A stretch of DNA of 64,000 nt, from NCBI GenBank assembly GCA_903901045.1, contig CAIUPP010000060.1, positions 6,661 through 70,660 of the forward strand, written 5' to 3'. The notes below the pieces were generated by a model. It saw only the letters and a list, made by a program, of their open reading frames with translations. It had not been told where the DNA came from and did no database searches. Shown piece by piece: positions 4,110-40,939 of the stretch (the first letter of the stretch is position 1; the number at the start of each line of letters is the position of its first letter). Both the position numbers and the translations under genes were made by a program. This DNA comes from an uncultured Planctomycetota bacterium (GTDB lineage: Bacteria > Planctomycetota > Brocadiia > CAIUPP01).

Positions 4110-7106
4110 CTACTTCTTCAGCAAGTGATTTCGCAGTTCAATAACGCTCTTTCCAATTGGGATAGCATGAACGTGGCGCGCACCCGCCCAATCAATCAGT
4201 GCATAATAGCGGTGGAAACCGGGATCTCCCGGTACATGCGGAGGCGGTGCGGTTTCGAGAACTAGGCGATCACCGTCAACCTCGGATCCCAACACGGTGG
4301 CAAACGTGCGGCAGAGGCGTGGTTCCTCCGCGGCCCCATATTGCCAGCACAATTCGTAGTCGCTGGCTCGGTTGGGCATGAAGACCGTCAAATCGTTGGC
4401 ATATAGCCATGGTTTCCCATCCAGCCGCATACGAGCCGGAGCGGCCCGCAGCCTCACCCGCGGAGCGAAGAGGAATGGCGTGGTGGTGGCCACGCGCACG
4501 CGCGCCGTGTACCACCCATCGCGCTCCCGAATGTCAGAGATTAGAACGGTATGCTGAGAACCCCAGCCCCAGGTAATCTCGCCGCCAATGAGGCTGTCCC
4601 GGGAAATGGTGGCCTCTTCGCCGGGGTAATGGAGGACTTTCAGGTAGTCGCGGTTAGGATGCCTTATGGACTCCGTTACGCCGCGGTAATGCCACCATCC
4701 CCGCTCCCGAACCCGGCAAGCGACGTCAGCGGCGGGCTTAAGAGCAATTACTGCCGAGACGGCAATGGGGTACGACGACGCGACATGGACCAGCGCTTCG
4801 GAACCTTCGAGATTGTATATTCGGGGCTCAAACAGACCTAAGAGATCTGCCAGTTGCTTCGCGCTCTGCCCTTGTAGGTGCCCGGAGGCTAGGAGCAATT
4901 CCACCGTGACTTTGTGAGACTCTCCGATCGCTGTATGAAAACTAATTCCGGGCCGTAATTTAAGGTCTTCAATCTCGGCCCCCTCAACAGAGACGCGCAG
5001 CAGGACTTCAGGCAGCAGCCCGTCTTTATCGTGCAACGCAAACTGAACCTCCGAGGCGTTCTGCGCCAACACGACGAATTCGTAATGCTCGTCCGGGCAG
5101 ATGTAGTTTGCGACTCGCCTGGGCTTTGCAGCGGGCGCGAGGGCTTGCCGCGTCACCTCCAAACGCAACCCGGGCAGGTCACTGAGCAGGCGAAGATGGC
5201 GCGTCTCCCGACGCTCCCCTTCATGTTCACGTACGTTGAGCACTTGCGCCACTTCGGCTAGTGCGCCTCCCGGCTCGAGTACTTGGTATATTTCGTCGCA
5301 CGCTCCCACTTCGTTGGTCATGGCTGGAGCTGCGAAGAATGGCGCGAAGATTTGAACGAGGTTGCCATTGCCGTAGAACTTCGCCGAGCGGGAGAGGTCC
5401 AAGTTCAGGACATTGAAATCCTTCCCCGGGAAGAACAGCATCTCCAATTCCTGGTTTCGGACGAAGCGTGTGTCGTCAGGCCAGGCGTGGCGAGGCAAAA
5501 GGCGGGTCAGTTCCTGAGGCGGTTGTTTCTTGAGCATACGCTTCAGGTCAATCGTGCCGCCTCGCCCGGTGTCCTTGAGCGTTCCAGTCAGGCAGGATCT
5601 GATCGGGTCCTGGGAAACCGCGTATACAGCGCGCTTTGTCTCGGGAGGACATACGCCATCGTCCACCGCCTCCCAGCAGAGTGCGGATGCCACGGTGTCT
5701 GATTCGTCCCGCCAACGTCGCTGCGCGAAAGCGAGAATCTGCGAGTATATCCAGTCCGGAGCAGCGGAGCGAGCGGGAATACCTTTGTGCGCATACTCGT
5801 CGCGAACGCAGCTATCCTCGCAAGGCCGCCGACTTTCTGCGCAGCCTTGGAGGTAATAGAAAGCGATCTCCTTGTTCCGGCGGTAGAAGTCCCTTGGATA
5901 CGGCGCAGCGGGAAACAGCCAATCGTAGCCGGTGTGGTGCGCATCGGACCCCACCCAGTGCGCCACGTAATTCGCGAACCCGGCGGAGTAACCATTGTTT
6001 TTGAGTTCCATTGCCGTGCCCGTGATGCCGCCGGATACCATCTGCATCACTCCGGGGTTGCACTGCCAAGCCTCGTCGGTCTCCCGAGGGGCGTCGTGGG
6101 GGAACATTTCGTAAATCGCCCCATCAACTGCGCCGGGGAGTTGCTCCACCCCGCCGACGCAACCGAACATTTCATTGACCGTCCGGTAGAAGAGCAGAAT
6201 CTGCTCGGAGGTCATGGCATCCAGAATTGCGCAATCGTCCAAAGAGAAAAGGAACAATTCCGCAAGCATGCCGTTCTTGTGCGCTAGGGCAAAGAGGCAC
6301 CGCAGGTCGCTGACCGTCCAGCGCGTATCTGTGGCCCTGCCGATCCCGGGCAGAGGCTTGCCATTTTCTCGAACATCCAGAAAATGTCCACCCGCAACGG
6401 CCGGGTTTACTTCGATCAGGTTCGCTCCCCACTTCCGCGCCTTGCGGACGGCCTGCTCCGCAATCTCCTCCCAAGACGCTTCCAGTCCCTGTGGGTTATC
6501 GAAGTTGATGTACGCCATCCAACCCCATGCGTCCAGCATCGGAAGGCCGGGATTTCTGCGCGAGAAGGTGTCTGGGGCCCGTCGAGTGTCCCTGAGGAGT
6601 TCAAGACCTAGAACTTCCACGCCGTCCCCTGCGTAGAACAACGGTCCGCAGCGGTCGCCGTTGCTGTTACGCAACTCCATTTCTACCTTCCGCTCCTCGT
6701 TCACGACGAATGAGGTCTCAAGCACCCATTCAGCCCTCTCGGCCAGTCGCCTTTCGTACAGGGCAGCGAGTTGATACCTGTCTTTGACTCCTTGCGTGAA
6801 CGCAAGCTTCTCGTTCGTCACGCCGTCACGTCGGGATCCCGGCCAGTTGTCATCGCTGTCCCCGGCGAAGGGGACGCCCAAGGCATCTACCGGGTGACCA
6901 TTAAGGTGGACCGTGAGCAGTTGATTATGCACTGCTTCACGAATGCGGATTCTTAAGCGATAGGCTCCCCGCTCCAACTGTCCGTTAAGGAAGAGGGCAG
7001 CAGGACCAGGGCTCGGGGAATGATCGCCACGAAGCCTAATAGGATAGCTGGCTTCGATTTTTCCCTCGTTCAGGCTGAGTTGTATCGATTTTGGGATGCC
7101 GTTCAT
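4110..7106 (-). CDS. large cytoplasmic hypothetical protein (998 aa), possibly a TIM-barrel glycosidase-like enzyme
   Basis: Long ORF without a signal peptide. Transcribed divergently from the GntR-type regulator. Contains 'DAWGWMAYINFDNPQG...GANLIEVNP'-type segments. Confidence 0.7.
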   Translation of the reverse strand: MNGIPKSIQLSLNEGKIEASYPIRLRGDHSPSPGPAALFLNGQLERGAYRLRIRIREAVHNQLLTVHLNGHPVDALGVPFAGDSDDNWPGSRRDGVTNEKLAFTQGVKDRYQLAALYERRLAERAEWVLETSFVVNEERKVEMELRNSNGDRCGPLFYAGDGVEVLGLELLRDTRRAPDTFSRRNPGLPMLDAWGWMAYINFDNPQGLEASWEEIAEQAVRKARKWGANLIEVNPAVAGGHFLDVRENGKPLPGIGRATDTRWTVSDLRCLFALAHKNGMLAELFLFSLDDCAILDAMTSEQILLFYRTVNEMFGCVGGVEQLPGAVDGAIYEMFPHDAPRETDEAWQCNPGVMQMVSGGITGTAMELKNNGYSAGFANYVAHWVGSDAHHTGYDWLFPAAPYPRDFYRRNKEIAFYYLQGCAESRRPCEDSCVRDEYAHKGIPARSAAPDWIYSQILAFAQRRWRDESDTVASALCWEAVDDGVCPPETKRAVYAVSQDPIRSCLTGTLKDTGRGGTIDLKRMLKKQPPQELTRLLPRHAWPDDTRFVRNQELEMLFFPGKDFNVLNLDLSRSAKFYGNGNLVQIFAPFFAAPAMTNEVGACDEIYQVLEPGGALAEVAQVLNVREHEGERRETRHLRLLSDLPGLRLEVTRQALAPAAKPRRVANYICPDEHYEFVVLAQNASEVQFALHDKDGLLPEVLLRVSVEGAEIEDLKLRPGISFHTAIGESHKVTVELLLASGHLQGQSAKQLADLLGLFEPRIYNLEGSEALVHVASSYPIAVSAVIALKPAADVACRVRERGWWHYRGVTESIRHPNRDYLKVLHYPGEEATISRDSLIGGEITWGWGSQHTVLISDIRERDGWYTARVRVATTTPFLFAPRVRLRAAPARMRLDGKPWLYANDLTVFMPNRASDYELCWQYGAAEEPRLCRTFATVLGSEVDGDRLVLETAPPPHVPGDPGFHRYYALIDWAGARHVHAIPIGKSVIELRNHLLKK

Positions 7107-7235: not shown

Positions 7236-8369
7236 GTGCAACAATGCCTTTCGAAGCTTCGGATAAACCCCAGCGGAGCTTCAGCCACGCATACTCAGAT
7301 ACGAGAGTTCCTCGAAGACAATATCCGCGATGGATGTCTGAGTCCTGGCAATCGTCTCCCTTCCACCGCCGAACTCGCCGAAATGTGGCGCGTAAGCCCC
7401 GTGTCAGTCCAGAAGGCCATGACGGAGTTGAAGGCGCACGGGTTCATCGAGCGCCGAATGCCCTACGGTACGTTTGTCCGCAGTGTGGAGCGGGATACGA
7501 CGATTGCCATCCTCGCAGGCAATCGGCTCATAAATGAAACGGCGTATTACCAGCGGATGCTCGTGGCATGCCTGTTCGAGGAACTTGCCGGCCGTTCCTG
7601 GAAGTCCATCTTGTACGACGGCTTCGATGTGGGCAATAGTTCAGAGGAAGTTCAGACCCTTTCGCGAAATCGGTTCATCGCCGATGCGAAGAGGCACCTC
7701 TTTTCTGGCTTGGTGATGATCGGCATGGGGTCGCCCGACTTCGAAGACATGGCTCCGCAAACGGGCCTACCGACGGTGCGCATCAGCACCGTGCTGAAAT
7801 TCTCGGATGTGACTTATGATGGCTATCAGTTCGGTTGGGACGTTATGGAATGGGCCAGCCGTAACGGGTTCCGCCGGGTGGCCTGCATGGGCATGAATGA
7901 AGACCAGCGCGGGGTGGGGGTGCAGGCAGGAGCGGCGCGGTTCAACCTTTTGGTGTCACATACCGACATGGGTGGAGTAGTCCTGGACAAAGTCGTCTAC
8001 GATCAAACAATGGCGATGATTGATGACTGGGCCCGTCGTAATGAGTATCCCGAGGCGCTGGTAGTGCGCGATGACGTGGCCATGCGCAGCGTGGCGCTGG
8101 CGTTGGCGCACCGGCAAGTCCAGGTGCCTCAGCAGTTGAAAGTCCTGACGTTGGCCACCAAGGGAACGCAAATCCATTACGGCATTCCTGTTACGAGATA
8201 TCAATTCTCTCCACAAGAGGAAGCCAGCGTGGCCATGTCCATCCTGTGGAAGAGGATTTTGCACGAAGCCCCCCCGCAAGTGCCGGTTCTGTTGCGGGGA
8301 AAGATCATTGAGGATCAGTTCAGTGGAGGAGGACCCGGACAGACAACGTCGGTCGGCGCGCTCGTGTGA
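7236..8369 (+). CDS. GntR-family HTH transcriptional regulator with a periplasmic-binding-protein-like (LacI-type) sugar-binding domain
   Basis: N-terminal 'IREFLEDNIRDGCLSPGNRLPSTAELAEMWRVSPVSVQKAMTELKAHGFIERRMPYGTFV' is a GntR-type winged HTH. The C-terminal ~270 aa looks like a PBP type-I fold. Confidence 0.8.
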   Translation: MQQCLSKLRINPSGASATHTQIREFLEDNIRDGCLSPGNRLPSTAELAEMWRVSPVSVQKAMTELKAHGFIERRMPYGTFVRSVERDTTIAILAGNRLINETAYYQRMLVACLFEELAGRSWKSILYDGFDVGNSSEEVQTLSRNRFIADAKRHLFSGLVMIGMGSPDFEDMAPQTGLPTVRISTVLKFSDVTYDGYQFGWDVMEWASRNGFRRVACMGMNEDQRGVGVQAGAARFNLLVSHTDMGGVVLDKVVYDQTMAMIDDWARRNEYPEALVVRDDVAMRSVALALAHRQVQVPQQLKVLTLATKGTQIHYGIPVTRYQFSPQEEASVAMSILWKRILHEAPPQVPVLLRGKIIEDQFSGGGPGQTTSVGALV

Positions 8370-8412: not shown

Positions 8413-9735
8413 ATGAAGCACTCGCTATGGACACGGTTGTCTGGCGCATTTACGTTGATCGAACTCCTCGTGGTAATCGCCATTATCGCCATTTTGGCCG
8501 GGCTGCTTTTGCCGGCGCTGGCGGCGGCACGCGAAAAGGCGCGCCGTACGACCTGCATCAACAACCTGAGCCAATTCTCCAAGGCGCTGGAAAGCTATTG
8601 CAGCGACTATTCCAGCTATTTCCCTTCCTCGCACCAGTATGGCGGCCAATGGATGGACGACAGCACCGCGGGGGCGGAAAAGATGCTGGTCTGTGGAGCG
8701 TATTCGGCGCGCACCCCCAGCAGCGGGACACAGACGATCAACACCATTGACCCTGAGAATTACCAGACCGTGGGCTACCCGACGTATATCGCCAGGGCAC
8801 AGCCGATTCAATACCTCCGGTGCATCTTCGCAGGCAAGCTTCCGGGCACCAAAGGCTATGATTCCGTCGCCCGCCCGGCCGGCCAACTCAACCTGGGTCC
8901 CGTGGGCCTGGGCATGCTCCTGACGGCTGGATACCTCGGCGATGCAAAGACCTTCTACTGCGCTTCCCATAATGTTTCTTCCTCCTTGGATGAGCAGAAG
9001 ATTACGCTGATCGGAAACAGCCGCGCCGACTACCGCTGGACGTATGCGTGCAGCCAGGGACAATGGAAGACGGCCGGCGGATTTGACGCCGCCACAGCGA
9101 TGACGGGCAACTGGGGCGCCGCCGTGACACCGTGGGAGTACCAGCCCTGGGGCCACTATGCGTTCGGCGGACGCGCGGTTTTCAGCTCCTATGCGTACCG
9201 CAACATGCCGGTGCTGACGTTGTACAGCGGCACCCAGGACCTGTCGGGCATGCTGGGCGTCACGTTGCGGGGCGGAAAGATGCGCGTCGCGTATGCTAAG
9301 CCGTTCGTCGAGCAATCTCTGAATGCGCCCGCCTTTAAGACGCAGAAACTGCTTGCCGGGCGCGCTATTGTATCTGATATGTTCGGAAAGGCTACTTGGA
9401 ATGATTCCAGTTGCAGCCCTATCAACAATCCAGGCGAAGGACTTCTGCACCACCGAGATGGCTATAACGTGCTCTATGGCGATTGGAGCGCCAAATGGTA
9501 CGGCGATCCGCAGCAGAGACTCATTTACTGGCCCAACAATGCTACGGAGTGTTACAGGAACGATACGTATTCGAGTGTGACGACGGACTGGGGACATTGG
9601 GGCAGCCCATCGTACTATGATCAAATCTCAGTGTACGCGACTCAATATGCTAGTGCGCAACATGTCGAGGGCAGTACGGGCGTGTGGCATATGTTTGACG
9701 TGAACGCGGGCACGGATGCCGATTCGCAGCCGTAA
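8413..9735 (+). CDS. DUF1559 / H-X9-DG protein with a prepilin-type N-terminal cleavage/methylation domain
   Basis: '[42 protein letters not shown]' is the classic type IV pilin-like N-methylation motif. The C-terminal '[14 protein letters not shown]' matches the H-X9-DG signature. The family is typical of PVC bacteria. Confidence 0.85.
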
Positions 9736-9772
9736 GTCTCAGGCATCGCCGACAGCGTAGTGAGTTCCTGAT

Positions 9773-9812
9773 AACGCCCCGCCAGGTCGCGAGGCTTGGC
9801 GGGGCGTTTTGT
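9773..9812 (+). terminator. rho-independent terminator
   Basis: 'AACGCCCCGCC-aggtcgcgaggctt-GGCGGGGCGTT' stem-loop followed by TTTTGTT, 38 nt after the DUF1559 stop. Confidence 0.6.
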
Positions 9813-9919
9813 TCATCGCCGTGTCGCTAACCCACTGTTTGATCCGTGTTTCCCAATTCAAGTCCTTGTGGACTCATCTGGTCGTGCGCCACTATTGACT
9901 CCAATCAGGAGGCCGCCTG

Positions 9920-12900
9920 ATGAAGACGCGAATATTGACGGGCTTGAGGACTCTTGGTGCTGTGATCGCGCTGTTGGCGCTTGCCACAGTAGCGCAGGCC
10001 GCCAACGGAACGTGGAATGTTGACGCCAACGGAAACTGGGGCACGACAGGCAACTGGGCCAGCAGCGTCATTGCTAATGGGTCCGGGTACACGGCAAACT
10101 TCACGAACAATATCACCGCCGACCGAACGGTCAATCTCGACAGCAACCGGACGATAGGCAGCATGATATTCAGTGACAATGGGACGAACGGCAGCGCCTG
10201 GATCCTGAGTTCGTCGGGTAATTCCACGCTCACGATGAGCGGGGGGAGTCCGACCATCGCGGTACGGACGCCGGCCACGATCTCCCTGAAACTTGCGAAC
10301 TCATCTGGCAGCAATATCGTGCTGACTGACGGCGGTTATGGCCAGGAGTTGACTCTGTCCGGCAGCAACGCCTTTGCCGGCAGCGTGACTCTTCAATCGG
10401 GCGTGGTGAACATCACGGGCGATAACCACGGCTCAGCGGGGAGCTTCTATGCCGTTCCTAACGGCGCCGGCGTGCAGTCGACGTTGAAGCTGCAAAGGTC
10501 AGATGCATATTGCCTGCCGACCGGCGTGTTCAAGTTGGACGGACGCACTTCCGGCAGCCTTCTGCGGCTGTACGACAACGACAACGCGACCGTGAAGACG
10601 TATCCAAACAATCTGCAGTTGGGCGGCGATATCTACTGCTATTTCAGGAACCTCAAGTTCAACGGTACAGTGTCATTGCTGGGGAACACCACCCTGCGCG
10701 GATGTACGGACGCCGGGTCCTGCCTGACGCTGCCGGGCGTCATCAGCGGCAGTGGATACAAACTGGACGTTCAGTCGCCCGGCTCCTCCGGCACGGTGGA
10801 CCTGCATCTCTCCGGAAACAATACTTTTAGCGGCGGCACATCGCTCATGCGCTCCAGCCTGTATCTCGGGTCCAATACGGCGCTGGGCACGGGAACTCTC
10901 ACCATAAACCAGCATCCCGTCTATCCATTCAGCCCCTGCCTTTACTCGGAAAACGGCGCGCGTTCGCTCTCCAACGCCATGACCCTCAATTGCAGCGTGA
11001 AAGTGGACGGCTCGTCCAACCTGACCTTCACCGGTCAGGGTACGATGACCGACAATGTCACCGTGACCGTAGCCGGCGGCAGCTATCTGTGCCTGGCCGG
11101 CGGGATGAACGATCCGAACGGTAAGACGCTGACAAAGGAGGATGCCGGCGAACTGGGCGCCAAAGGAACATTCAATTGCGATATTTCCGTCAATCACGGG
11201 TCGCTCCAGAGCGCCGGGACGCTCAGCGTTGCCGGGAGCGACATTGGCACGTTGACGGTCAACGGAAATGTCAACTTCGCTGATGACAATGATGGTCAAG
11301 GGACCTTCTCGGTTGATCTCAACGGGACCAGTGCAGGGACCACCTACGACCAGATGGTCGTCAATGGCACCGTCACCCTTGGCAACGGGTCGTACTATCC
11401 CCACTTGAACGCTGTCCTGAAGACCACGTCGCTGGGCCTTAACGATACTCTCACCATTATTCAAAATGACGGCACCGATCCGATCGTGGGCCGTTTTGAT
11501 GCCGAAGAAGGCTCGTTGGTGCAACTCAACGTCCAGTGCGGCGGGGGAGTGCAATATGCGACGGCGAAGATCAGCTACGTCGGGGGCACAGGCAACGACG
11601 TAACGCTCACCCATTTCAGAACGTCCACCACCCAAAGCTATTTGCCGCGCCGGTGGGAGTACCAATTGGACCTGAAGAATTGGCTCGCCACGCTGGTGAC
11701 GTCGGACTTCAACGTGATGCTCTCCAATATGACCTACAACGACAACTACTTCGCCAATAACGATATGGTGCATGCCGAATGGCTGCTCTTTGACAGTTAC
11801 GGGGAACAGGTGCCTAACCACCGTCTGCTGCGCACACCCTCTTCGGCATTTGCTCTCAGCAGCATTGACCCCCTCGACGGCACAATCTATATGCCGAACT
11901 GGGATAACATCGAGCGGCCCGCCGCGACCGACCCTCGCGCCAATATATGGTGGGCCGGTTGGAACTACAGCGGCAATCCACACAAGGCCTCCGCCAACGC
12001 GACGGCGATCAAGAAACGCGCGCTGGTACAGGTGGCGGTGGACATGATGGAACAGGATGAAGATCACTTCAATAATGTTTACAACAGGCGTTCGGACTAC
12101 CTGGGTGATCAGTTGTGCGGTTGGGCGTACACCTACAAGAAAGGCAAGGACGTTCTTGATGCCGGCACAAAGGCAGCGTTTGAGGCCGGGCTGAAGAGAA
12201 TGTTCACGAAGATTGAAACCTGGGGAATCGAAGGCTTTTATGCCGACATGGACGCCCGCGCGTTGCTCGGGATGTGGTACACCGCCGAGGCGCTCAATGA
12301 CAATGATTTACGGACCCGGTACGCCAGTTTCCGTGACAATGAGTTCATTGCCGGTGAATGGAACTCCGCCGGTTACCTGACGCATGGTGAGGCATTTGAC
12401 GCGGGCTACCAGGGCATTAGTTTCTACTACCTCACATGGCTCGCGCTGGAGTCCAACGACACGACGATTAAGAACCTCGTCGCAGCCAGCAGCAAGTTGA
12501 AGGCCTATCTGACCTTGCCGGAAAACGACGGCGCCTGGTTCTTCGGTCCGAGTCATTTTAACACGGCGACGGACGCCTGCTCGGCGAACGATGAGTGGTA
12601 CACCTATCGTCGCGACGTCGGCACCGGGATGATTACCGACGAGGCGAAGTACCTGGTCTGGACGGGACGGGCGCGAGTGGCGGCGTACTTACATGGCGAT
12701 CTGCTCTCTGTCGCAGACATGAAGACGGAAATCAACACGAATACAGGGAAACTGAACAGTTACACCGGCGGTACAAATGACTACGCTTTCACACAGGCCT
12801 ACAACGGCACGCATACGCCTTGGCACTCTGTGTACTGGGGCACTTGTTGGATGCCCTTCGCGGGAGATGACTTCTACCCCACGGGCTACTACGATTCCCT

Positions 12901-15373
12901 CGTGGCCCTGAAGAACTCCGATTCGCCCCTCACGAAGGTGCCAGCCGCGCGAAGTGCCGACTACGTGGAGAACTTCAACAACGTGTTCCTCTGCGCCAAG
13001 CTTGGACCTTACAGCGTGATTGTTCATACCGGGAATCTGTCGAATTGGAACGACCTCGGTCTCTCCGGTTTCAGCGGTGGAAGCCTGAGCGCTTTCTGGA
13101 CGCAGGCGGCCGGTCCAGCGATTCTCGGCAGGGCGGCCGGGTACCAGAATCCGAATAACGACACTTGGAGCGACTGGAACAAGTGGCCCGTCCATGCCCT
13201 GAGCGGCGTGGCCTCCGGGAACAAGCCATTCTCCTCGTCGCGGCAGAAGAACCCGACTTCAAGCTATACGACCAGTTCTTCCAGCGCGACCGTACAGGTC
13301 GGTGGCGCCTTGGCGGATACTTATGCATCTCCCAACAACGCCCTTGTCGGGAATGTCACCTACAGCCGCACATTTGGATTCACGTCGTCCGGTCTGACCG
13401 TGACCTCCTCCATCACGAGAGACCCCAATCAGACCAATACGGTGACCGAACTGTGGGAGATGATCCCCGTATTTCTGGGAAACACCACAGGAGGCCCGAC
13501 GGTCTCGATTTCGTTCTGGACCGGGTCGCAATGGGTTGCGGCTGGGACATCGGAGACGGCGGGAGTCACCTGCGTGAAGGTCCAACGCGGGAGCGGGGCC
13601 ATCTATATCCACTTCGCCTCCGCACAATCCATCAAGCTATCTCCGAGCGTGTGGTCAGCGGACTTCGTGTTGGCGGTCAGCGAGCGGAATCTCATGATCA
13701 ACCTCCTCCCGGGCGGCACTGGTCCGTTGCCGTCCGTAAGTGTGCAGTACTCGATAGACAACATTTCTCCGGACGGAGGCGATGGAACATGGGGTGTGGA
13801 CGCCGGCGGAAACTGGAGTACGGCAAGCAACTGGGTCAGCAACGTCATTGCCGATGGGGCCGGCCACACCGCGAACTTCACATGGAACATCACGGCTGAC
13901 CGGACGGTAAACCTCGACACCAACCGGACGATTGGCAGCATGAACTTCACCGACAATGGGGGCAACGGCAGCGCCTGGACTCTCGGATCGTCGGGCAATT
14001 ACACGCTCACGATGAGCGGGGGGACTCCGACAATCAGCGTGCGGACGCCGGCCACGATCTCCCTGAAGCTTGCCAACGCATTTGGCGACAATATCGTGAC
14101 GACCGACGGTGGCTACGGTCAGGAACTGACCCTGTCGGGCAACAACGCATTTGCCGGCAGCGTGACACTCAAGTCCGGTGTGCTGAATCTAACGGGTGAT
14201 AACAGCAGCTCGATGGGAAGTATTCTCGCAGTCCCCTACGCCTCTGGCGTGCAGGCGGCTCTAAAGTTAAAGAGTGCGAATTGCCTGCCTACCGGTATAT
14301 TCACGGTGGACGGACGCATCTCCGGCAGCCTCGCGCGGCTGTACGATGACGACAATGCCACAAAGAAGACGTATGCCAACGAGCTGCATTTGGGCGGCCC
14401 GATCAGCTGCTACTTCAGGAACCTCCAGTTTAACGGCAAGGTGTCATTGATGGGGGATACGACGCTGAGCGGCTACACCGATGTCGGGTCTTGCTTGACT
14501 CTGCCGGGCAATATCAGCGGCAGCGCATACAAGCTTGACGTTCAGTCGCCGAATTCCTCCGGCACGTTGGACCTGCATCTTTCCGGAGACAACGCCTTCA
14601 GTGGTGGCACATCGCTTATGCGCTCCAGCCTGTATTTCGGGTCCGATACGGCGTTGGGGACGGGAACTCTTACCATAAACCAGCACCCGTACTACCCTTG
14701 GAGCCCGCACCTATATTCGGAAAACGGCACGCGTTCGCTCTCCAACGCCATTACCTTCAATTGCGGCATACAAGTAGGTAGCTCATCCGACCTGACCTTC
14801 ACGGGCCAGGGCACGCTCAACGACAATGCGACCATGACGGTAGATGGCGGGAGCTACCTGTGTCTGGCCGGCGGGATGAACGACCCCAATACCAAGACGC
14901 TGACCAAGGCCGGCTCCGGCGAACTGGGCGCCGCGGGAACGTACAATCCAGACATAGTCATTGGCGCCGGGACACTGAGCGTAGCCGGGAAGAACATTGG
15001 TGCGCTGACAGTCAACGGAAATATCAGTTTTACCGATAGCAATAGCACCTTTGCCGTCGATCTCAATGGAACCAACGCAGGGACCACCTACGACCAGATG
15101 GCCGTCAATGGCACCGTCACCCTCGGCAGTGGAGGATACTATCCTACACTGAAAGCAGTCCTCAAGACCGCGTCGCTCGGCTCAGGGGACACGCTTGCCA
15201 TCATCGTGAATGATGGGACGGATGCCGTGTCTGGGCACTTTAACGGCCTGACGGAAGGCTCAACCGTGACGCTGGTAGTTGATGTTGCGGGTGTAACATC
15301 GGCGACGGCGAGTATCAGCTACGTCGGCGGGACCGGGAACGACGTGACACTCTACAACTTCGATATTCACTGA
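9920..15373 (+). CDS. giant secreted surface protein (1817 aa). Two autotransporter-associated beta-strand-repeat modules flank a central aromatic-rich putative carbohydrate-active domain.
   Basis: Signal peptide 'MKTRILTGLRTLGAVIALLALATVAQA'. 'GSNAFAGSVTLQSGVVNITGDN'-type beta-helix repeats. AGGAGG RBS at 9907-9912. Confidence 0.85.
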   Translation: MKTRILTGLRTLGAVIALLALATVAQAANGTWNVDANGNWGTTGNWASSVIANGSGYTANFTNNITADRTVNLDSNRTIGSMIFSDNGTNGSAWILSSSGNSTLTMSGGSPTIAVRTPATISLKLANSSGSNIVLTDGGYGQELTLSGSNAFAGSVTLQSGVVNITGDNHGSAGSFYAVPNGAGVQSTLKLQRSDAYCLPTGVFKLDGRTSGSLLRLYDNDNATVKTYPNNLQLGGDIYCYFRNLKFNGTVSLLGNTTLRGCTDAGSCLTLPGVISGSGYKLDVQSPGSSGTVDLHLSGNNTFSGGTSLMRSSLYLGSNTALGTGTLTINQHPVYPFSPCLYSENGARSLSNAMTLNCSVKVDGSSNLTFTGQGTMTDNVTVTVAGGSYLCLAGGMNDPNGKTLTKEDAGELGAKGTFNCDISVNHGSLQSAGTLSVAGSDIGTLTVNGNVNFADDNDGQGTFSVDLNGTSAGTTYDQMVVNGTVTLGNGSYYPHLNAVLKTTSLGLNDTLTIIQNDGTDPIVGRFDAEEGSLVQLNVQCGGGVQYATAKISYVGGTGNDVTLTHFRTSTTQSYLPRRWEYQLDLKNWLATLVTSDFNVMLSNMTYNDNYFANNDMVHAEWLLFDSYGEQVPNHRLLRTPSSAFALSSIDPLDGTIYMPNWDNIERPAATDPRANIWWAGWNYSGNPHKASANATAIKKRALVQVAVDMMEQDEDHFNNVYNRRSDYLGDQLCGWAYTYKKGKDVLDAGTKAAFEAGLKRMFTKIETWGIEGFYADMDARALLGMWYTAEALNDNDLRTRYASFRDNEFIAGEWNSAGYLTHGEAFDAGYQGISFYYLTWLALESNDTTIKNLVAASSKLKAYLTLPENDGAWFFGPSHFNTATDACSANDEWYTYRRDVGTGMITDEAKYLVWTGRARVAAYLHGDLLSVADMKTEINTNTGKLNSYTGGTNDYAFTQAYNGTHTPWHSVYWGTCWMPFAGDDFYPTGYYDSLVALKNSDSPLTKVPAARSADYVENFNNVFLCAKLGPYSVIVHTGNLSNWNDLGLSGFSGGSLSAFWTQAAGPAILGRAAGYQNPNNDTWSDWNKWPVHALSGVASGNKPFSSSRQKNPTSSYTTSSSSATVQVGGALADTYASPNNALVGNVTYSRTFGFTSSGLTVTSSITRDPNQTNTVTELWEMIPVFLGNTTGGPTVSISFWTGSQWVAAGTSETAGVTCVKVQRGSGAIYIHFASAQSIKLSPSVWSADFVLAVSERNLMINLLPGGTGPLPSVSVQYSIDNISPDGGDGTWGVDAGGNWSTASNWVSNVIADGAGHTANFTWNITADRTVNLDTNRTIGSMNFTDNGGNGSAWTLGSSGNYTLTMSGGTPTISVRTPATISLKLANAFGDNIVTTDGGYGQELTLSGNNAFAGSVTLKSGVLNLTGDNSSSMGSILAVPYASGVQAALKLKSANCLPTGIFTVDGRISGSLARLYDDDNATKKTYANELHLGGPISCYFRNLQFNGKVSLMGDTTLSGYTDVGSCLTLPGNISGSAYKLDVQSPNSSGTLDLHLSGDNAFSGGTSLMRSSLYFGSDTALGTGTLTINQHPYYPWSPHLYSENGTRSLSNAITFNCGIQVGSSSDLTFTGQGTLNDNATMTVDGGSYLCLAGGMNDPNTKTLTKAGSGELGAAGTYNPDIVIGAGTLSVAGKNIGALTVNGNISFTDSNSTFAVDLNGTNAGTTYDQMAVNGTVTLGSGGYYPTLKAVLKTASLGSGDTLAIIVNDGTDAVSGHFNGLTEGSTVTLVVDVAGVTSATASISYVGGTGNDVTLYNFDIH
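10008..11618 (+). repeat. intragenic direct repeat, copy 1 (~1.6 kb, N-terminal beta-helix module)
   Basis: About 80 % nucleotide identity to 13785-15355. The protein modules 'NGTWNVDANGNW...ISYVGGTGNDVTLTHF' and 'DGTWGVDAGGNW...ISYVGGTGNDVTLYNF' are collinear. Confidence 0.8.
13785..15355 (+). repeat. intragenic direct repeat, copy 2
   Basis: See copy 1. Confidence 0.8.
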
Positions 15374-15439
15374 CAGGAATATTTCAGGAATTGGATGCTC
15401 AACGTGGATCAAGTCATGGTTGACGGTGCGCAGTGAATT

Positions 15440-16597
15440 ATGAAGCATTCGATATTGCGAAAAGCGACATCACACGTGACCAGCAGAGACCGTCTGCTGG
15501 TCACGTGGTCGTTCCGTGAGCCTGACCGCGTGCCCGTCGAGTTGGAGAACACCGAAGAAGTGCGCCGGCATCCGGCGACTCGGCGATTATGTGAATTCGC
15601 AGATCGGGAGGCGGATAACTTCATCTTTGTCGCTGCGGCGGATTGGGGATTCTTCGGGCTTCAGGCGGTGTCGGCGGAAGAAGTCATCGAGGAGGCGCGG
15701 GGACGGTTTGTCCGCAAGCGGCTGACGTACCGGACCTCAGTCGGAGACTTCTGCCGCATTACGCGGCATCCGTGTGATGTGGCTGACCCGGCGGATTTCT
15801 ATTGGGAACAGCGGTTCATTCGGACCCGTGAGGACATGGACCGGTTGGCTAGTGCGCCAAAAAGCGCCCTTCGTGTGCTTCATCGGGAGTATGCAGAGGC
15901 GGATGCCCGGGTTGGCAGTCGGGGAGTCCCAATTAGCGGGCTGGCGCACCCGTTGGGCAGTTTGGTTCGCATGGCCGATACGGAGTCGGTCTACGGTTGG
16001 CTGGCGACGGAGCCGGCGCTGATCCATAGGTTTCTTGATCGCTGCTATGGGCAGCAGGTAGCAGTCATTGAAGAAATGGGACGTGTCGGGATGCGGCCCT
16101 CATTTATCACGTGGGCACATGAAATGCTCATCCCTCCGTGGATGAGTCCGAGGATGTTTGACGAGTTTGTCTTCCCTTACGACAAGCGGCTCAACGATGC
16201 CATTCATCGGATTGGCGGACGCATGCGCATGCATTGCCACGGCTCCTGCATGAACTTTCTGGAGAAGTTTGCGGATATGGGTGTGGATTCCATCGAGCCG
16301 CTGGAACCGTCCCCATACGGCGATGTAGACTTGGCGGACGCCAAGCGGCGGGTGGGGGATCGAATGCTTCTTTCGGGTAACATCCCTTCCCAGAAGTTTC
16401 CATTCATGTCGCGAAAAGAAGTCCAGGAGTGCGTGAAGGAGGCTATCGCGGCGGCGGCAGGCCACGGTGGGTTCACCCTGCGTACCACAGGGGGCGGACT
16501 CGGAGCGGGAGACTTGGCGGAACCGGCGCTGGCAGGCAAAATGATTGAGAACTACGAGGCGTTCATCGATGCCGCGCTGGAATATGGCACCTATTGA
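15440..16597 (+). CDS. URO-D/MtaA-like family protein (possible Zn-dependent methyltransferase-like)
   Basis: N-terminal '...DRVPV' and 'MRMHCHGSCMNFLEKFADMGVDSIEPLEP' with a His-x-Cys motif, as in the MtaA/URO-D family. Confidence 0.7.
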   Translation: MKHSILRKATSHVTSRDRLLVTWSFREPDRVPVELENTEEVRRHPATRRLCEFADREADNFIFVAAADWGFFGLQAVSAEEVIEEARGRFVRKRLTYRTSVGDFCRITRHPCDVADPADFYWEQRFIRTREDMDRLASAPKSALRVLHREYAEADARVGSRGVPISGLAHPLGSLVRMADTESVYGWLATEPALIHRFLDRCYGQQVAVIEEMGRVGMRPSFITWAHEMLIPPWMSPRMFDEFVFPYDKRLNDAIHRIGGRMRMHCHGSCMNFLEKFADMGVDSIEPLEPSPYGDVDLADAKRRVGDRMLLSGNIPSQKFPFMSRKEVQECVKEAIAAAAGHGGFTLRTTGGGLGAGDLAEPALAGKMIENYEAFIDAALEYGTY

Positions 16598-16612
16598 TGG
16601 GAGTAGTGAAAA

Positions 16613-18019
16613 GTGAAGCGAGTGAAGATCGTCTTCATCGGAGCAGGGTCGGTCGTCTTTGGTCGCAATGTCCTTGCCGACATTCTTTGGCATCCGGCGT
16701 TGAAGGAAGCCGACCTTGTCCTGGTGGATATTGACGCTGAGCGTCTTAGCACTGCTGAGAGAATGACTCACATTGTGAACGAGCAGTTGGGCGCTGGGGC
16801 CCGCATCACCGCCACTAAGAATCGCCGCCTTGCCTTGGAAGGGGCGGATTTTGTAATCAATGCCATCGGGGTTGGCGGGCACGCGGCAGCGAAGATTGAC
16901 TTGGAACTTCCCGCGCGCTTTGGGGTTAGACAGATTGTCGGCGACACCCTTGGCGTCGGCGGCATCTTTCGCGCCGTCCGTTCCGTTCCCGAACTCCTGG
17001 CAATCTGTTCGGATATGGAGGAACTGTGCCCGCGCGCGTTGTTGCTGAATTGCAGCAATCCCATGGCTATGCACTGTCTGGCCGTTGAGCGCACTACAAA
17101 GGTCAGACATGTGGGGCTATGCCACGGCGTGCAGAACACCGCACAGACCATGCGTCTGATCATTGCAATGGCACAGGAACCTGCCGCCGCAGTCCGTCGG
17201 CACTTCCAACGTCCATGGAATTCCCCCGAAAGGGTCCGGGAGTGGCAGGCGTGGTTGAAGAAGAGCTTCGATCCTGGCTTGAGCTATACGTGCGCCGGGA
17301 TCAACCACATGGGTTTCTTCCTTCGATTCCGGTCGAAGGGCAGAGACCTCTACCCGCTCTTGTGGAAAGCCATGGACATCCCTCATATCTGGCGTTTTGA
17401 CCCCGTGCGCTTTGAGTTGTTCAAACGTTTCGGGTACTTCATGACTGAAACCAGTGGCCACATGGCCGAGTATGTCCCGTATTTCCTGAAGAATGAACGT
17501 GAGATCCGTCGCTGCTGCCTGCGTCCTGCGGTGTACCTTGAGACTTGTCGGCGACAGGACAAGGAATACTGCAACCTACGCCGCTTGATGAAGAGCGGAC
17601 AACCCATCGTGCCAATGCCGTACGAACCGAGCGTCGAATATGCCGCACGCATTATCAATGCCTCCGTCGAGAATGTGCCATATGTGTTCAACGGAAACGT
17701 GCATAATGAGGGCGGGCGCTGGCTCCCCAACTTGCCCGGCGACTGCTGCGTGGAAGTTCCCTGCGTGGTGGACAAGAAGGGGCCTCGGCCGCTTGCGCCC
17801 ATTGATCTGCCCCCGCAGTGTGCCGCGCTGATTCGCACCAATGTGAACGTGCAGGACCTTGCCGTTCGAGGCATTCTGGAAGGGGACCGGCGTTACATTC
17901 ACCAAGCGATAATGCTCGATCCGAACACCGCCAGTTCCCTTACCTTGCCAGAGATTGACCGGGTCGTGGAGGCGATGTTCAAGGCGCATGCAAAGCGGTT
18001 GCCGCGCAATCTGCGATAA
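16613..18019 (+). CDS. glycoside hydrolase family 4 (NAD+/Mn2+-dependent glycosidase)
   Basis: 'MKRVKIVFIGAGSVVFG' Rossmann N-terminus plus the 'HVGLCHGVQN' GH4 catalytic motif. GTG start with a GGAG RBS. Confidence 0.8.
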   Translation: MKRVKIVFIGAGSVVFGRNVLADILWHPALKEADLVLVDIDAERLSTAERMTHIVNEQLGAGARITATKNRRLALEGADFVINAIGVGGHAAAKIDLELPARFGVRQIVGDTLGVGGIFRAVRSVPELLAICSDMEELCPRALLLNCSNPMAMHCLAVERTTKVRHVGLCHGVQNTAQTMRLIIAMAQEPAAAVRRHFQRPWNSPERVREWQAWLKKSFDPGLSYTCAGINHMGFFLRFRSKGRDLYPLLWKAMDIPHIWRFDPVRFELFKRFGYFMTETSGHMAEYVPYFLKNEREIRRCCLRPAVYLETCRRQDKEYCNLRRLMKSGQPIVPMPYEPSVEYAARIINASVENVPYVFNGNVHNEGGRWLPNLPGDCCVEVPCVVDKKGPRPLAPIDLPPQCAALIRTNVNVQDLAVRGILEGDRRYIHQAIMLDPNTASSLTLPEIDRVVEAMFKAHAKRLPRNLR

Positions 18020-18048
18020 CAACCATGACAAGGAAGCGAGACGAAATC

Positions 18049-20418
18049 ATGAAGGCAGTCCTCACCCTGTGCGGCGTAGTGCTTCTCTGCGGCGCTTGCT
18101 CCATCTCGAAACCTGCTCTTGCCGCGGTGGCACCCGTCAACAGCGATCTGAACCCCGTCTCTTTCCATGAGGCGCCTCAGCACCCTCCCGTGGCGCTCAT
18201 CGGTCCCGGTGGGACGGTCAAAATCGTCTTGTTGCCTGGCGCATCTCACACTTTGCTCGCGGCCGTCAATGATTTGGCCGATTGTGTCCAGAAAGCCACT
18301 GGAGCGCGAGCGGAAATCTCGGCCGGTCCGGTCAAAGGTCCGGCCATCTTTGTAGGCGATAGCGCGGAGGCGATGGGGGCAGGCTTGGTTGGTTCGAAGA
18401 TGCCCATCGAGGGGTTTGCAATCAAGACCGCTACGGACCGTGTATACATCGTGGGCAATGACAGCCTGATCGACCCGGCGGCCGACCTGCGGTCTGAAGG
18501 AACGGCTTGGGGAATTTACGAGTTCTGTGAGCGATTTCTGGACGTGCGTTGGTACTGGCCGGACGCACTTGGCGTCAGTATTTCGAAACGCGCCGATCTG
18601 ACCATCGCACCAGTATGGCTGAGTGACGCACCGGTCTTCCGGAAGCGCGAAATGTGGCCCTCGGGCGGCAGACGCGTGGCGCCTGCCGATGTGGAGTCTC
18701 TGCACCGCCGGCTGCGCTCGGTGGACACTTGGCCAATTCACCTGCGTGTCCATGCGCCACACGATTGGTCCACTCTGTATAAAGACACCCGGCCTGGAAT
18801 TTTCCAGAAGCGCTCGGACGGCAAGCGAGACTTCGACATGCTTTGCTACGGCAATCCGCAGACGCTGCAAACCTATCTGGAACAGATTGAACGGCAGTCC
18901 AAACCCGGAGTGCAGGTGGATGAGAACGAGCGCATTGTGGACGGGCATGCGGTCACGGTATCGCCGAACGACATGTCCGTTGCATGCACATGCGAATATT
19001 GCCGCGCTCTTTGGGACAAGGACGGAGGGCAATACGGTACGGCGTCGCGGGGTATGGCCACGTTCGTTGCGAAGCTGGCCGGCGAGGTCAAGAAGCGCTG
19101 GCCGGACATGACCATTATTTACCTGCCCTATAAGAACTACACAAAAGCCCCTGCGGGCATCACCTTTCCTGACAATGTTGAAGTGCAAATATGCGGCATG
19201 CCCGGTCTGGCACAGTATAAGGAACCCGCCATCAATGCCTCCGAGCAAGCGAACATTGACGCATGGAAGAACCTGAGCAGGAGGAAGATCCAGAACTGGC
19301 ACTATTCCTGCTGGCCGGAGGATCAAACGGACGCGGTATACCTGTTCCCGCACACGATACAGGCGCACTACCTCGCCAATCGAGACAAGACGACCGGCTC
19401 GTTCGTCAACGGCGTTGCGAATCACTGGCCCCGGCAGCATATCAGTTTGTATGTCTGGCTCAAGGTCTTGTGGAACCCCGATTTCAACGTGGACTTTGCG
19501 ATTGATGAATACTGCCGGCGGATGTATGGCCCGGCCGCGGGGACTATGCGCGAACTGGCCCGCATGCAGATTGACGGATGGGAAAACAGCCGCTGGCCCG
19601 GCGGCGTATTCTCGGCCAGGGGGGTCTATGAAAGCAGCTATCCGCGCGAGCAGGTTGTTCGGATGGAAGAGCTGCTCAAGAAGGCCCGAGTTGAAGCGGC
19701 GGGGGACTCGCTGGCGACTGAGCGGATAGAGTACTACGCGACTCCGTTTCCAGCCTTTTTCAAAGAGTCGAAAGACTACGCAGAAGGTACGGGTCGAAGA
19801 ACCCTTAGCGCGTACCAAGTGGCCGAAGACCCGGTGTTGGACGGACGTTTGGACAAGCCTTGCTGGCAGGGCATAGAGCCTTTGCTTTTCGTGAAGGCGC
19901 TGGACCAGCAGGATCCGCAACCCAAGTATCCGACGGAGTTGAAAGCCGTCTGGTCGCGGCAGGGGATCACATTCGGGTTCCGTATGTCGGAGCCGACGCC
20001 TGAGAAGCTCGCGCGCGACATCGGAGCGGACAGCCGCGACGCGTCACTGATCTGGTGGAACGACAATGTGGAACTGTTCCTCGACGTGGTCGGGGAACGC
20101 ACGGACTACTATCAGTTCATCGTTAACCCCAACGGCGCCATCTATGACAGCCACGGGAAGGAGATTAGCTGGACGGCGGAAGGGGCGAAGTCAGCCATCT
20201 ATCTTGGCAAGGACTTCTGGTCAATGGAAGTGTTCATCCCCTACAAGGCGTTTAACCGGGTGACACTCCCGGCGACGGGCATCCAGTGGTTCGGCAATTT
20301 TACGCGTCACCGCGTAACAGACCGAAGTGATCGCGAGATGCAACGGCTCAACACCACTTTCGCTGGACCGAGTAATAACCCCAACGCCTTCGGTCCCATC
20401 CGGTTTGTCGAGCGCTAA
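18049..20418 (+). CDS. DUF4838-like secreted lipoprotein with a C-terminal CBM9/DOMON-like carbohydrate-binding domain
   Basis: Signal/lipobox 'MKAVLTLCGVVLLCGAC'. The C-terminal 'DGRLDKPCWQGIEPLLF...WWNDNVELFLD' is CBM9-like. Second ATG chosen as start because it has an AGGAAG RBS. Confidence 0.7.
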   Translation: MKAVLTLCGVVLLCGACSISKPALAAVAPVNSDLNPVSFHEAPQHPPVALIGPGGTVKIVLLPGASHTLLAAVNDLADCVQKATGARAEISAGPVKGPAIFVGDSAEAMGAGLVGSKMPIEGFAIKTATDRVYIVGNDSLIDPAADLRSEGTAWGIYEFCERFLDVRWYWPDALGVSISKRADLTIAPVWLSDAPVFRKREMWPSGGRRVAPADVESLHRRLRSVDTWPIHLRVHAPHDWSTLYKDTRPGIFQKRSDGKRDFDMLCYGNPQTLQTYLEQIERQSKPGVQVDENERIVDGHAVTVSPNDMSVACTCEYCRALWDKDGGQYGTASRGMATFVAKLAGEVKKRWPDMTIIYLPYKNYTKAPAGITFPDNVEVQICGMPGLAQYKEPAINASEQANIDAWKNLSRRKIQNWHYSCWPEDQTDAVYLFPHTIQAHYLANRDKTTGSFVNGVANHWPRQHISLYVWLKVLWNPDFNVDFAIDEYCRRMYGPAAGTMRELARMQIDGWENSRWPGGVFSARGVYESSYPREQVVRMEELLKKARVEAAGDSLATERIEYYATPFPAFFKESKDYAEGTGRRTLSAYQVAEDPVLDGRLDKPCWQGIEPLLFVKALDQQDPQPKYPTELKAVWSRQGITFGFRMSEPTPEKLARDIGADSRDASLIWWNDNVELFLDVVGERTDYYQFIVNPNGAIYDSHGKEISWTAEGAKSAIYLGKDFWSMEVFIPYKAFNRVTLPATGIQWFGNFTRHRVTDRSDREMQRLNTTFAGPSNNPNAFGPIRFVER

Positions 20419-36192: not shown

Positions 36193-36278
36193 GCACTGAA
36201 GGCGTGAGTTAGGACGCGAACCATGTCGCCCGCCCGTTGCGCGCGCGGCGGGCCGCATTTGGCATGAAAGGAAGTTGC

Positions 36279-37622: not shown

Positions 37623-37647
37623 TCCAGCCGCGTTATCGAGGGCGTTC

Positions 37648-40938: not shown

Positions 40939-40939
40939 G

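Follow-up and report, generated by a model that had tools for sequence, protein, structure and literature searches.

A predicted lyase-like core between two duplicated PATR beta-helix modules in a planctomycete protein

What does a protein of 1817 amino acids do whose two ends are copies of each other and whose centre is of another kind? The gene encoding it lies on the forward strand at positions 9920–15373 of a 64,000-nucleotide stretch of DNA (the window) from an uncultured Planctomycetota bacterium. An earlier note, made without database searches, described the product as a giant surface protein in which an enzyme-like domain is bracketed by two beta-helix modules, and raised the possibility that recombination between the repeats deletes this domain, a form of phase variation. 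From the analysis reported here we conclude that the product is most likely a Sec-exported multidomain carbohydrate-active enzyme; its domain arrangement is unusual, yet the gene represents neither a new kind of system nor a phase-variation switch.

The open reading frame starts with ATG, 7 nt downstream of an AGGAGG Shine-Dalgarno sequence, and encodes in this order a signal peptide, a PATR module, a lyase-like core and a second PATR module. The Sec-type signal peptide (9920–10000), as read by eye, has the cleavage site MKTRILTGLRTLGAVIALLALATVAQA/A and lacks a lipobox Cys. The N-terminal PATR beta-helix module (10004–11617; aa 29–566) begins with the N-cap 'GTWNVDANGNW..NW', continues with repeats of about 115 aa and ends with the C-cap 'TYDQ...ISYVGGTGNDVTL'. 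The core of 721 aa (11618–13780) consists of an alpha-helical (alpha/alpha) toroid-like domain (11618–12937; aa 567 to about 1006) and an antiparallel beta-sandwich domain (12950–13780; aa about 1011 to 1287), and is followed by the C-terminal PATR beta-helix module (13781–15361; aa 1288–1814). The linkers between the arms and the core are only about 8 aa long, and the protein ends 3 residues past the last C-cap with '...NFDIH*' (also given as '...GNDVTLYNFDIH'). No PEP-CTERM or sortase signal was detected at this C-terminus, in agreement with the earlier note, a search for other sorting domains was also empty, and a search of the protein for a beta-barrel translocator (PF03797) gave no match. 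With a Sec-type signal peptide present and no anchor of a recognised kind, the name giant surface protein is unproven.

Are the two arms true paralogs? In a local protein self-alignment aa 29–566 and aa 1288–1814 are collinear, as the earlier note had claimed, and identical in 392 of 539 columns (73%), with 13 gap positions only. BLASTN gave a DNA identity of 76.0% over 1610 columns, with ungapped blocks that are 75–82% identical; of the earlier estimate, about 80% for 10008–11618 versus 13785–15355, the coordinates hold within a few bases and the identity was slightly too high. A chance likeness of the arms is excluded because tblastn of the whole window with the N module yielded, besides the self-match, the C module alone (732 bits). 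At codon positions 1, 2 and 3 the copies are 80%, 86% and 62% identical, the typical pattern of coding divergence. From the DNA identity of 76%, a longest identical run of 26 nt, a dS of 0.78 and a dN/dS of 0.22 it follows that the duplication is old and that purifying selection keeps both copies, and that it is not a contingency repeat. A gene-conversion or high-identity tract between the two copies was not seen.

Two other explanations of the repeat have been considered. That it is an assembly artefact, a doubt already voiced in the earlier note, is an a priori possibility in metagenome assembly with nothing further in its favour, and its probability is close to nil: the copies differ at 24% of the bases in the manner of coding sequences, the reading frame is unbroken across 5.4 kb, and a 10,883-nt ENA contig (L001) of an assembly that was deposited separately matches positions 8835–19717 of the window with 100% identity and spans both repeats, so that an artefact can be dismissed. 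The other explanation, that recombination between the two copies deletes the core and the repeat so acts as a phase-variation switch, can point to two in-frame direct repeats of about 1.6 kb flanking the core. This idea was not borne out and we consider it very unlikely. A longest identical run of only 26 nt makes deletion-based phase variation improbable, the overall identity and the dS and dN/dS values given above argue in the same direction, as does the lack of a high-identity tract, and both assemblies carry the identical full-length form. Of the marks of a contingency locus, neither near-identical repeats nor, in these two assemblies, variant forms were found for this gene.

What are the arms? 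On the whole protein the PF12951 and TIGR02601 HMMs remain below threshold, with 17.1 bits (cut-off 27) and 17.0 (cut-off 19.85), both at aa 1403–1424. A phmmer search with the N module reached an E-value of 1e-48, with coverage from the N-cap through the repeats to the C-cap, and about 80 database matches carry PF12951 (down to E 9e-36). The model of the N arm, of moderate confidence (pLDDT 72), is all-beta and made up of short, regular strands; its best matches in Foldseek are all beta-helices, namely autotransporter passengers, one of which alone has an E-value below 1e-3 (5e-4). Homology, model and best fold matches thus uphold the earlier assignment of the arms to the autotransporter-associated beta-strand modules, and each arm is a complete PATR-type module with N-cap, repeats and C-cap. 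The arms appear to be promiscuous, non-catalytic accessory modules of secreted PVC-bacterial proteins. Whether they could be catalytic beta-helix lyases was also considered; PL6 folds were matched at E-values near 1 only and catalytic arms are therefore not supported. Literature searches on the function of PATR modules in PVC bacteria yielded little.

The core differs from the arms in composition (W 3.7%, Y 5.3% and F 4.0%, with W about 1% in the arms) and, apart from one short 34-nt pair that is probably due to chance, contains no internal repeats. The centre had been described as non-repetitive and rich in Trp, Tyr and Asn, which is correct save for that one pair and for Asn, whose content is 7.4% in the core but 8.5–9.7% in the arms. 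AlphaFold predicts the core with a pLDDT of 90.5 and a pTM of 0.92, with helices to about core residue 440 and strands from 449 to 714, that is, a toroid with a C-terminal beta-sandwich, the domain order of the PL fold class to which PL5, PL8, PL12, PL15, PL17, PL21, PL33, PL39 and PL40 belong. When the model was compared with the PDB by Foldseek, the top 26 matches were all polysaccharide lyases composed of toroid and beta-sandwich (E 3e-9 to 2e-6), among them PL15 Atu3025, PL33 BtPL33HA, GAG lyases, PL17 Alg17c, PL39 Dp0100, PL8 chondroitinase AC and PL21 heparinase II. The alignments extend over about 750–800 columns and cover both domains; the matches are distant (TM 0.40–0.47; 10–13% identity). 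Non-lyases appear from E 1e-5 onward and cover the beta-sandwich alone, and glycoside hydrolase (GH) folds yield only partial beta-sandwich matches or E-values near 1e-3. Model and ranking support the earlier view of the centre as an enzyme-like domain of the (alpha/alpha)-toroid type. Pfam and NCBIfam have no match in the core or in any of 35 members of the core family, and phmmer and a family profile found no match to the core among the PDB sequences; in these searches the core thus belongs to no defined PL family.

Within the core family, whose sequences are 21–45% identical, 20 columns are invariant, N, R, D and E among them. Conserved residues are found both on the toroid domain (N686, R700, Y819, D827, H879, D891 and W968) and on the beta-sandwich (R1011, H1036, the 'GGxLSAFW' motif with S1057 and W1060, W1089, H1092, R1108, Y1148, R1150, E1180 and R1223). 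They include candidates for the catalytic Tyr and His and for an Asn or Arg charge neutraliser: N686 and R700 are invariant, and conservation is at least 91% for the histidines H879, H1036 and H1092 and 83% for Y819. The five conserved arginines of the family would fit an anionic substrate. In PL5, PL15, PL17 and PL21 the spacing 'N-H ... ~55 residues ... Y' is typical; the conserved residues of the core family show no evident spacing of this kind. In lyases with toroid and beta-sandwich the active site is at the domain interface, where Asn acts as neutraliser, Tyr as acid and His as base (PMC12915356, the PL40 structure paper).

At 50% identity the core family falls into about 360 clusters. 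Most are from PVC bacteria, Rhodothermales and Balneolales are represented as well, and nearly all members are from uncultured organisms. Many paralogs occur in some MAGs, about 16 in one from Planctomycetota. Stand-alone homologs have 700–760 aa and the core spans their whole mature length. Often, however, the core is accompanied by dockerin, CBM6/35, LamG3, PKD or a T9SS tail; the N-terminal extensions are mostly signal peptides, low-complexity linkers and small Cys-rich or LamG-type domains. An ECF sigma factor and transmembrane segments are joined to the core in one homolog, and a few have secreted FecR-like domains, too few cases to make an anti-sigma/FecR sensor fusion a general theme of the family.

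The architecture proved to be as unusual as the earlier note had supposed. About 190 proteins of the core family were sampled, the PATR arm module was present in none of them, and the closest relative of the core (43–45% identical) lacks it. A database of 5.8 billion proteins contains no ortholog, so that neither single-arm nor double-arm forms were found when looked for. Scanning JGI metagenome contigs with the core and the junctions detected nothing; scanning them with an arm alignment retrieved relatives that are at most 48% identical, the single exception being a match of 51 residues at 69%. The core had no match in plasmids by tblastn. Searches of the literature for a recently founded PL family that would match were mostly unproductive.

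Which genes surround the large gene? Upstream lies a gene (7236–8369, forward strand) for a candidate sugar-responsive regulator in which a GntR HTH is combined with a LacI-type periplasmic-binding-like domain. A terminator-like hairpin (9773–9808, forward strand; 16-bp stem with 11 G-C pairs) behind an upstream DUF1559/prepilin-type gene implies that the large gene opens a new transcription unit. Downstream, on the same strand and separated by short gaps, follow a URO-D/MtaA-like gene (15440–16597), a GH4 alpha-galactosidase-type gene (16613–18019) and a DUF4838+CBM9-like gene (18025–20418), with which the large gene probably forms an operon. The cluster runs on to about 29.7 kb and also holds genes for GH42-like proteins, esterases and oxidoreductases; GH88, GH105 and Kdu-type genes for the metabolism of unsaturated uronates were not found in the window. 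The neighbourhoods of the homologs are heterogeneous: 106 genes flanking 40 core homologs match 192 Pfam families, none of which occurs in more than 4 genes, and precomputed Pfam assignments show the same mixture. They therefore give no hint to the substrate.

We propose, with moderate confidence, that the gene encodes a predicted secreted lyase-like enzyme for an anionic glycan and heads a glycan-utilisation operon. The segment aa 567–1287 would be a complete representative of an enzyme family, about 700 aa in length and so far without annotation, that has the two-domain fold of toroid and beta-sandwich PLs. It would cleave an anionic, uronate-containing glycan in the interdomain cleft, most likely by beta-elimination; candidates for catalysis are Asn, Tyr, His, Asp and Arg residues that are invariant or nearly so on both domains. 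The second arm would stem from an old duplication within this planctomycete lineage, and the arms may bind the polymer or a surface or be rigid spacers that hold the catalytic domain. Since the large gene is the first in a same-strand cluster for glycan processing, its product would probably perform the first, extracellular depolymerisation step.

Could the lyase-type fold serve another chemistry, the core being a glycoside hydrolase or other glycan-modifying enzyme that acts via D827, D891 and E1180? Asp and Glu are invariant or near-invariant on both core domains, a canonical PL sequence motif or family match is lacking, the neighbours in the operon are hydrolases (GH4, GH42-like, DUF4838), and the genes for unsaturated uronates are absent from the window. 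We nevertheless consider this unlikely, as every match to the two-domain fold is a lyase, GH folds being partial or at E near 1e-3, and as three histidines and five arginines, all of them conserved, are suited to the binding of uronates and to elimination. Also, GHs that combine a toroid with a beta-sandwich usually have the latter N-terminal to the toroid, which is the reverse of the order in the core.

Clearly less probable is a non-catalytic role of the protein, as an adhesin or as a surface protein that binds glycans, with a degenerate lyase-like core for binding or sensing. The beta-helix arms resemble adhesin passengers, and the homologs with the ECF sigma factor and transmembrane segments or with FecR-like domains are in line with such a role. 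However, 20 invariant columns and many near-invariant polar residues have persisted at 21–45% identity, the fusions in the family are mostly those of enzymes (CBMs, dockerins, T9SS tails), and the gene heads a catabolic cluster.

Complex acidic glycans in lakes, soils and oceans are degraded to a large extent by Planctomycetota and Verrucomicrobiota, much of whose enzyme repertoire is unannotated. The core family, with several hundred sequence clusters, escapes sequence searches of Pfam, NCBIfam and the PDB; its confident PL-like fold therefore makes it a concrete biochemical candidate and possibly a new CAZy family. A more tentative thought, which we hold possible though doubtful, is that the core is the first recognised member of a new PL family at the CAZy level, specific for an acidic glycan beyond those of the known PLs, and that the arms are a bivalent clamp. 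Such a family would be largely confined to uncultured PVC bacteria, with more than 10 paralogs in some genomes, and the two arms would hold the polymer across the catalytic cleft. The arrangement PATR-core-PATR is in any case a natural construct for asking what such beta-helix modules, very abundant but unexplained in their function, contribute to enzymes; it points to no new way of regulating genes and to no new kind of phase variation.

How does the protein compare with known systems? The passengers of type Va autotransporters (SepA, Pet, EspP, Ag43, pertactin) are the best, though weak, fold matches of the arm, but these proteins end in a 12-stranded beta-barrel translocator (PF03797), which the planctomycete protein lacks. 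With the PATR proteins (PF12951, TIGR02601) of Planctomycetota and Verrucomicrobiota both arms share the N-cap, the repeat of about 115 aa and the 'ISYVGGTGNDVTL' C-cap. In those proteins sulfatases, GH cores, LamG or peptidases are the fusion partners, and several modules can be present per protein; different here are the HMM scores below threshold and the bracketing of a catalytic-type domain by two near-complete modules, which was not found in the other proteins sampled. From the toroid and beta-sandwich PLs the core family differs in its range, mainly PVC bacteria and Rhodothermales/Balneolales, and in having no sequence similarity to them detectable with a single sequence or a profile, at TM values of 0.40–0.47. 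In its overall two-domain fold and domain order the core is like PL15 (3a0o), PL33 (8r72), PL17 (4nei), PL39 (6jp4), PL40 (Uly1040), PL8 (1cb8) and PL21 (2fut); as in these lyases, the members of the family are secreted and often combine several modules, CBMs among them, and the conserved polar residues are distributed over both domains, in keeping with an active site between the two.

The large gene is a single ORF on the plus strand (9920-15373, 1817 codons) with an AGGAGG Shine-Dalgarno sequence 7 nt 5' of its ATG; its product starts with a putative Sec signal peptide (MKTRILTGLRTLGAVIALLALATVAQA, followed by A; judged by eye). The earlier note had described collinear duplicated arms around a non-repetitive, aromatic-rich centre, which protein self-alignment and composition confirmed. 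In the local self-alignment, residues 29-566 (N module) and 1288-1814 (C module) are collinear and identical in 392 of 539 columns (73%), with 13 gap positions, and apart from itself the N module has no match in the window but the C module. The central 721 residues (the core; nt 11618-13780) are non-repetitive and contain 3.7% Trp (~1% in the arms), 5.3% Tyr and 4.0% Phe. The DNA repeat (10004-11617 versus 13781-15361) likewise stood, only the figure of about 80% identity being slightly high: 76.0% was measured over 1610 columns, with 75-82% in ungapped blocks. A 30-nt motif encoding L.LSG.NN.F occurs twice per arm (10345-10374 and 10798-10827; 14122-14151 and 14569-14598) at a spacing of ~450 nt, reflecting the internal ~150-aa periodicity of the modules.

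With Pfam and NCBIfam the arms gave a single, sub-threshold match, at aa 1403-1424, to the autotransporter-associated beta strand repeat (PATR; PF12951, TIGR02601). Searched against the database, the full sequence retrieved ~80 proteins, nearly all containing PF12951 (E down to 9e-36). The phmmer search with the N module resolved three parts: an N-cap (module positions 1-160, GTWNVDANGNWS..NW..A.G.G.TANFT.NITADRTV.LD), which in other proteins directly follows the signal peptide or opens internal modules; PATR repeats of ~115 aa each; and a C-cap (TYDQ...ISYVGGTGNDVTL), with which many planctomycete PATR proteins naturally end. Since N-cap, repeats and C-cap are all present, each arm is a complete PATR module. 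The AlphaFold model of the N arm (pLDDT 72) is all-beta with short regular strands, and in Foldseek it best matches right-handed beta-helices (the SepA, Pet, EspC, EspP, Ag43, Hap and pertactin passengers and phage tailspikes), of which SepA alone reaches an E-value of 5e-4. By prediction, model, matches and PF12951 homologs thus favour the proposed beta-helix arms. Inspection of the sequence and Pfam revealed neither an autotransporter barrel nor a PEP-CTERM, sortase or T9SS signal in the large protein, in agreement with the earlier note on PEP-CTERM and sortase motifs. Elsewhere PATR modules, in up to two or three copies per protein, form fusions with sulfatases, GH catalytic cores, LamG domains and peptidases; they serve the secreted proteins of PVC bacteria as promiscuous accessory modules.

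The two arms resemble each other (73% identity) much more than they resemble any other relative: full-length relatives in the database share 28-36% over long stretches and ~53% over short segments only, and JGI metagenome contigs at most 48% over the N-cap, one 51-residue match of 69% excepted. The second arm therefore arose by duplication within this lineage. An assembly artefact as the source of the repeat, which the earlier note had considered, was ruled out by an ENA contig of 10.9 kb, belonging to an assembly deposited separately, that is 100% identical to window positions 8835-19717, both repeats included; the identical 1817-aa protein is recorded from NCBI, JGI and ENA. Codon alignment of the arms (526 codon pairs) gave 80, 86 and 62% identity at positions 1, 2 and 3, and Nei-Gojobori estimates of 0.78 for dS, 0.17 for dN and 0.22 for dN/dS: the duplication is old, and purifying selection keeps both copies. 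Because 50-codon windows show an even spread of identity over the module (59-86%), there is no tract of recent gene conversion. With 76.0% DNA identity, the dS value and a longest perfectly identical run of 26 nt, the arms are a poor substrate for homologous recombination, and phase variation by recombinational deletion of the core, also proposed in the earlier note, is therefore unsupported.

Neither the core nor 35 aligned relatives have a Pfam or NCBIfam match, and neither the single sequence nor the family profile matched a PDB sequence. A 5.8-billion-protein database yielded 44 relatives that are 23-43% identical and align over 75-100% of the length (at least 95% in most cases), and when 1.84 billion cluster representatives were searched exhaustively with a profile, 364 clusters reached E ≤ 1e-30. 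Since stand-alone members (700-760 aa) consist of signal peptide plus domain, the core corresponds to a whole mature enzyme of its family; linkers of only ~8 residues join it to the arms. Other members carry dockerin, CBM6/35, PKD, LamG3, Fn3-associated, RTX, FG-GAP or T9SS sorting domains, as is usual for secreted carbohydrate-active enzymes. Among ~190 sampled members none has an arm-like module, and neither the protein database nor the JGI metagenome contigs hold an ortholog of the whole protein; the PATR-core-PATR sandwich, rightly called unusual in the earlier note, is therefore a singleton assembled from common parts, and the arrangement is lineage-specific.

In GTDB genomes, nearly all MAGs, the family occurs mostly in Planctomycetota, Verrucomicrobiota, Lentisphaerae and Kiritimatiellia and also in Rhodothermales and Balneolales. 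One Planctomycetota MAG from Lac Pavin (JAPLMQ01) has ~16 loci (L011, L021, L022, L037, L046, L049, L051, L053, L063, L064, L068-L071 and L073) and one Verrucomicrobiota MAG (CAYSLU01) has 8 on 7 contigs (L004, L005, L008, L017, L029, L056 and L074), an expansion typical of substrate-diversified CAZymes. One member, P0025 (1029 aa), joins the core to transmembrane segments and an ECF sigma factor (regions 2 and 4), and in several others (P0039, P0141, P0146, P0161) a secreted FecR-like domain precedes it; these fusions may be a sensing variant, or that of P0025 a merged gene call. Many members (P0178, P0190, P0223, P0224, P0226, P0232, P0235, P0241, P0242, P0250, P0266, P0267 and P0269) have, between signal or lipoprotein peptide and core, a small Cys-rich domain (C..PP....C..G..F.A.LGG.C...C....G.C.Y....V.CP). 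The N-termini of P0276, P0253 and P0277 partially match the GH54 ArabFuran-catal model (~70 residues, E 1e-6 to 5e-9) and may be lectin-like beta-sandwiches.

Directly 5' of the large gene lies a DUF1559 gene (8413-9735, plus strand) of a paralog family that is a PVC hallmark, its product having a prepilin-type N-terminal methylation motif. Because a strong terminator-like hairpin with a 16-bp stem (9773-9808) separates the two genes, a GntR/LacI-type regulator is encoded upstream and same-strand genes follow 3' with short gaps, the large gene appears to head a glycan-utilisation cluster. The downstream products are URO-D/MtaA-like, GH4 alpha-galactosidase-type (NF011657, 514 bits, above cut-off), DUF4838+CBM9-like, a Gfo/Idh/MocA oxidoreductase, a LamG3 protein, GH42-like, a second URO-D-like protein, a xylose-isomerase-like TIM barrel and an esterase. 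GH88, GH105 and Kdu-type genes were not found within the window, and neighbourhoods of homologs elsewhere are heterogeneous. GC content is even (~58%) across the region, and an ABC-F protein of the window has its nearest named relative (73% identity) in a MAG labelled 'Candidatus Brocadiia' at NCBI. Together with the DUF1559 gene, this relative assigns the host to the PVC group, probably as an uncultured member of the Planctomycetota. Three URO-D/MtaA-CmuA-like (methyltransferase-fold) paralogs (2982-4061, minus; 15440-16597 and 26482-27648, plus) are interspersed with the glycosidase genes; that they strip O-methyl groups from methylated sugars is speculation. A 998-aa ORF without Pfam or NCBIfam match (4110-7106, minus) adjoins the cluster. 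Downstream of the cluster lies an RND efflux operon (36237-42307, plus), which encodes a HlyD-type membrane-fusion protein that contains a heavy-metal-binding domain, together with an AcrB-family pump and an outer-membrane factor.

The AlphaFold model of the core (35-sequence alignment; pLDDT 90.5, pTM 0.92) shows two domains, an alpha-helical toroid-like one to residue ~440 and a beta-sandwich spanning ~449 to 714. In Foldseek against the PDB the first 26 places are all taken by two-domain polysaccharide lyases (E 3e-9 to 2e-6; TM 0.40-0.47; 7-13% identity), so that prediction upholds the (alpha/alpha)-toroid centre, which the earlier note had likened to a lyase or glycosidase, as lyase-like. 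We therefore somewhat favour a lyase: the large protein would be a secreted, multimodular, lyase-like enzyme with an anionic glycan as target. The main rival, a hydrolase or other enzyme built on the identical fold, is rather unlikely; non-lyase matches exist (GH38, GH2, mutarotases), and they are weaker and cover the sandwich only. As a lyase-like protein whose core belongs to a candidate unclassified PL-like family, its value lies mainly in CAZyme discovery, for which it is a target.

The lyases in these first places are PL15 Atu3025 and exoHep, PL33 BtPL33HA, GAG lyases, PL17 Alg17c, PL39 Dp0100, PL8 chondroitinase AC and PL21 heparinase II. The core-family alignment has 20 invariant columns, with conserved polar residues on both the toroid (N686, R700, Y819, D827, H879, D891) and the sandwich (R1011, H1036, S1057, W1060, H1092, R1108, Y1148, R1150, E1180, R1223); the many conserved Arg and His fit an anionic substrate. 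In this fold class (PL40/PL39) the active site is interdomain, with Asn (or Trp) as neutraliser, Tyr as acid and His as base (PMC12915356).
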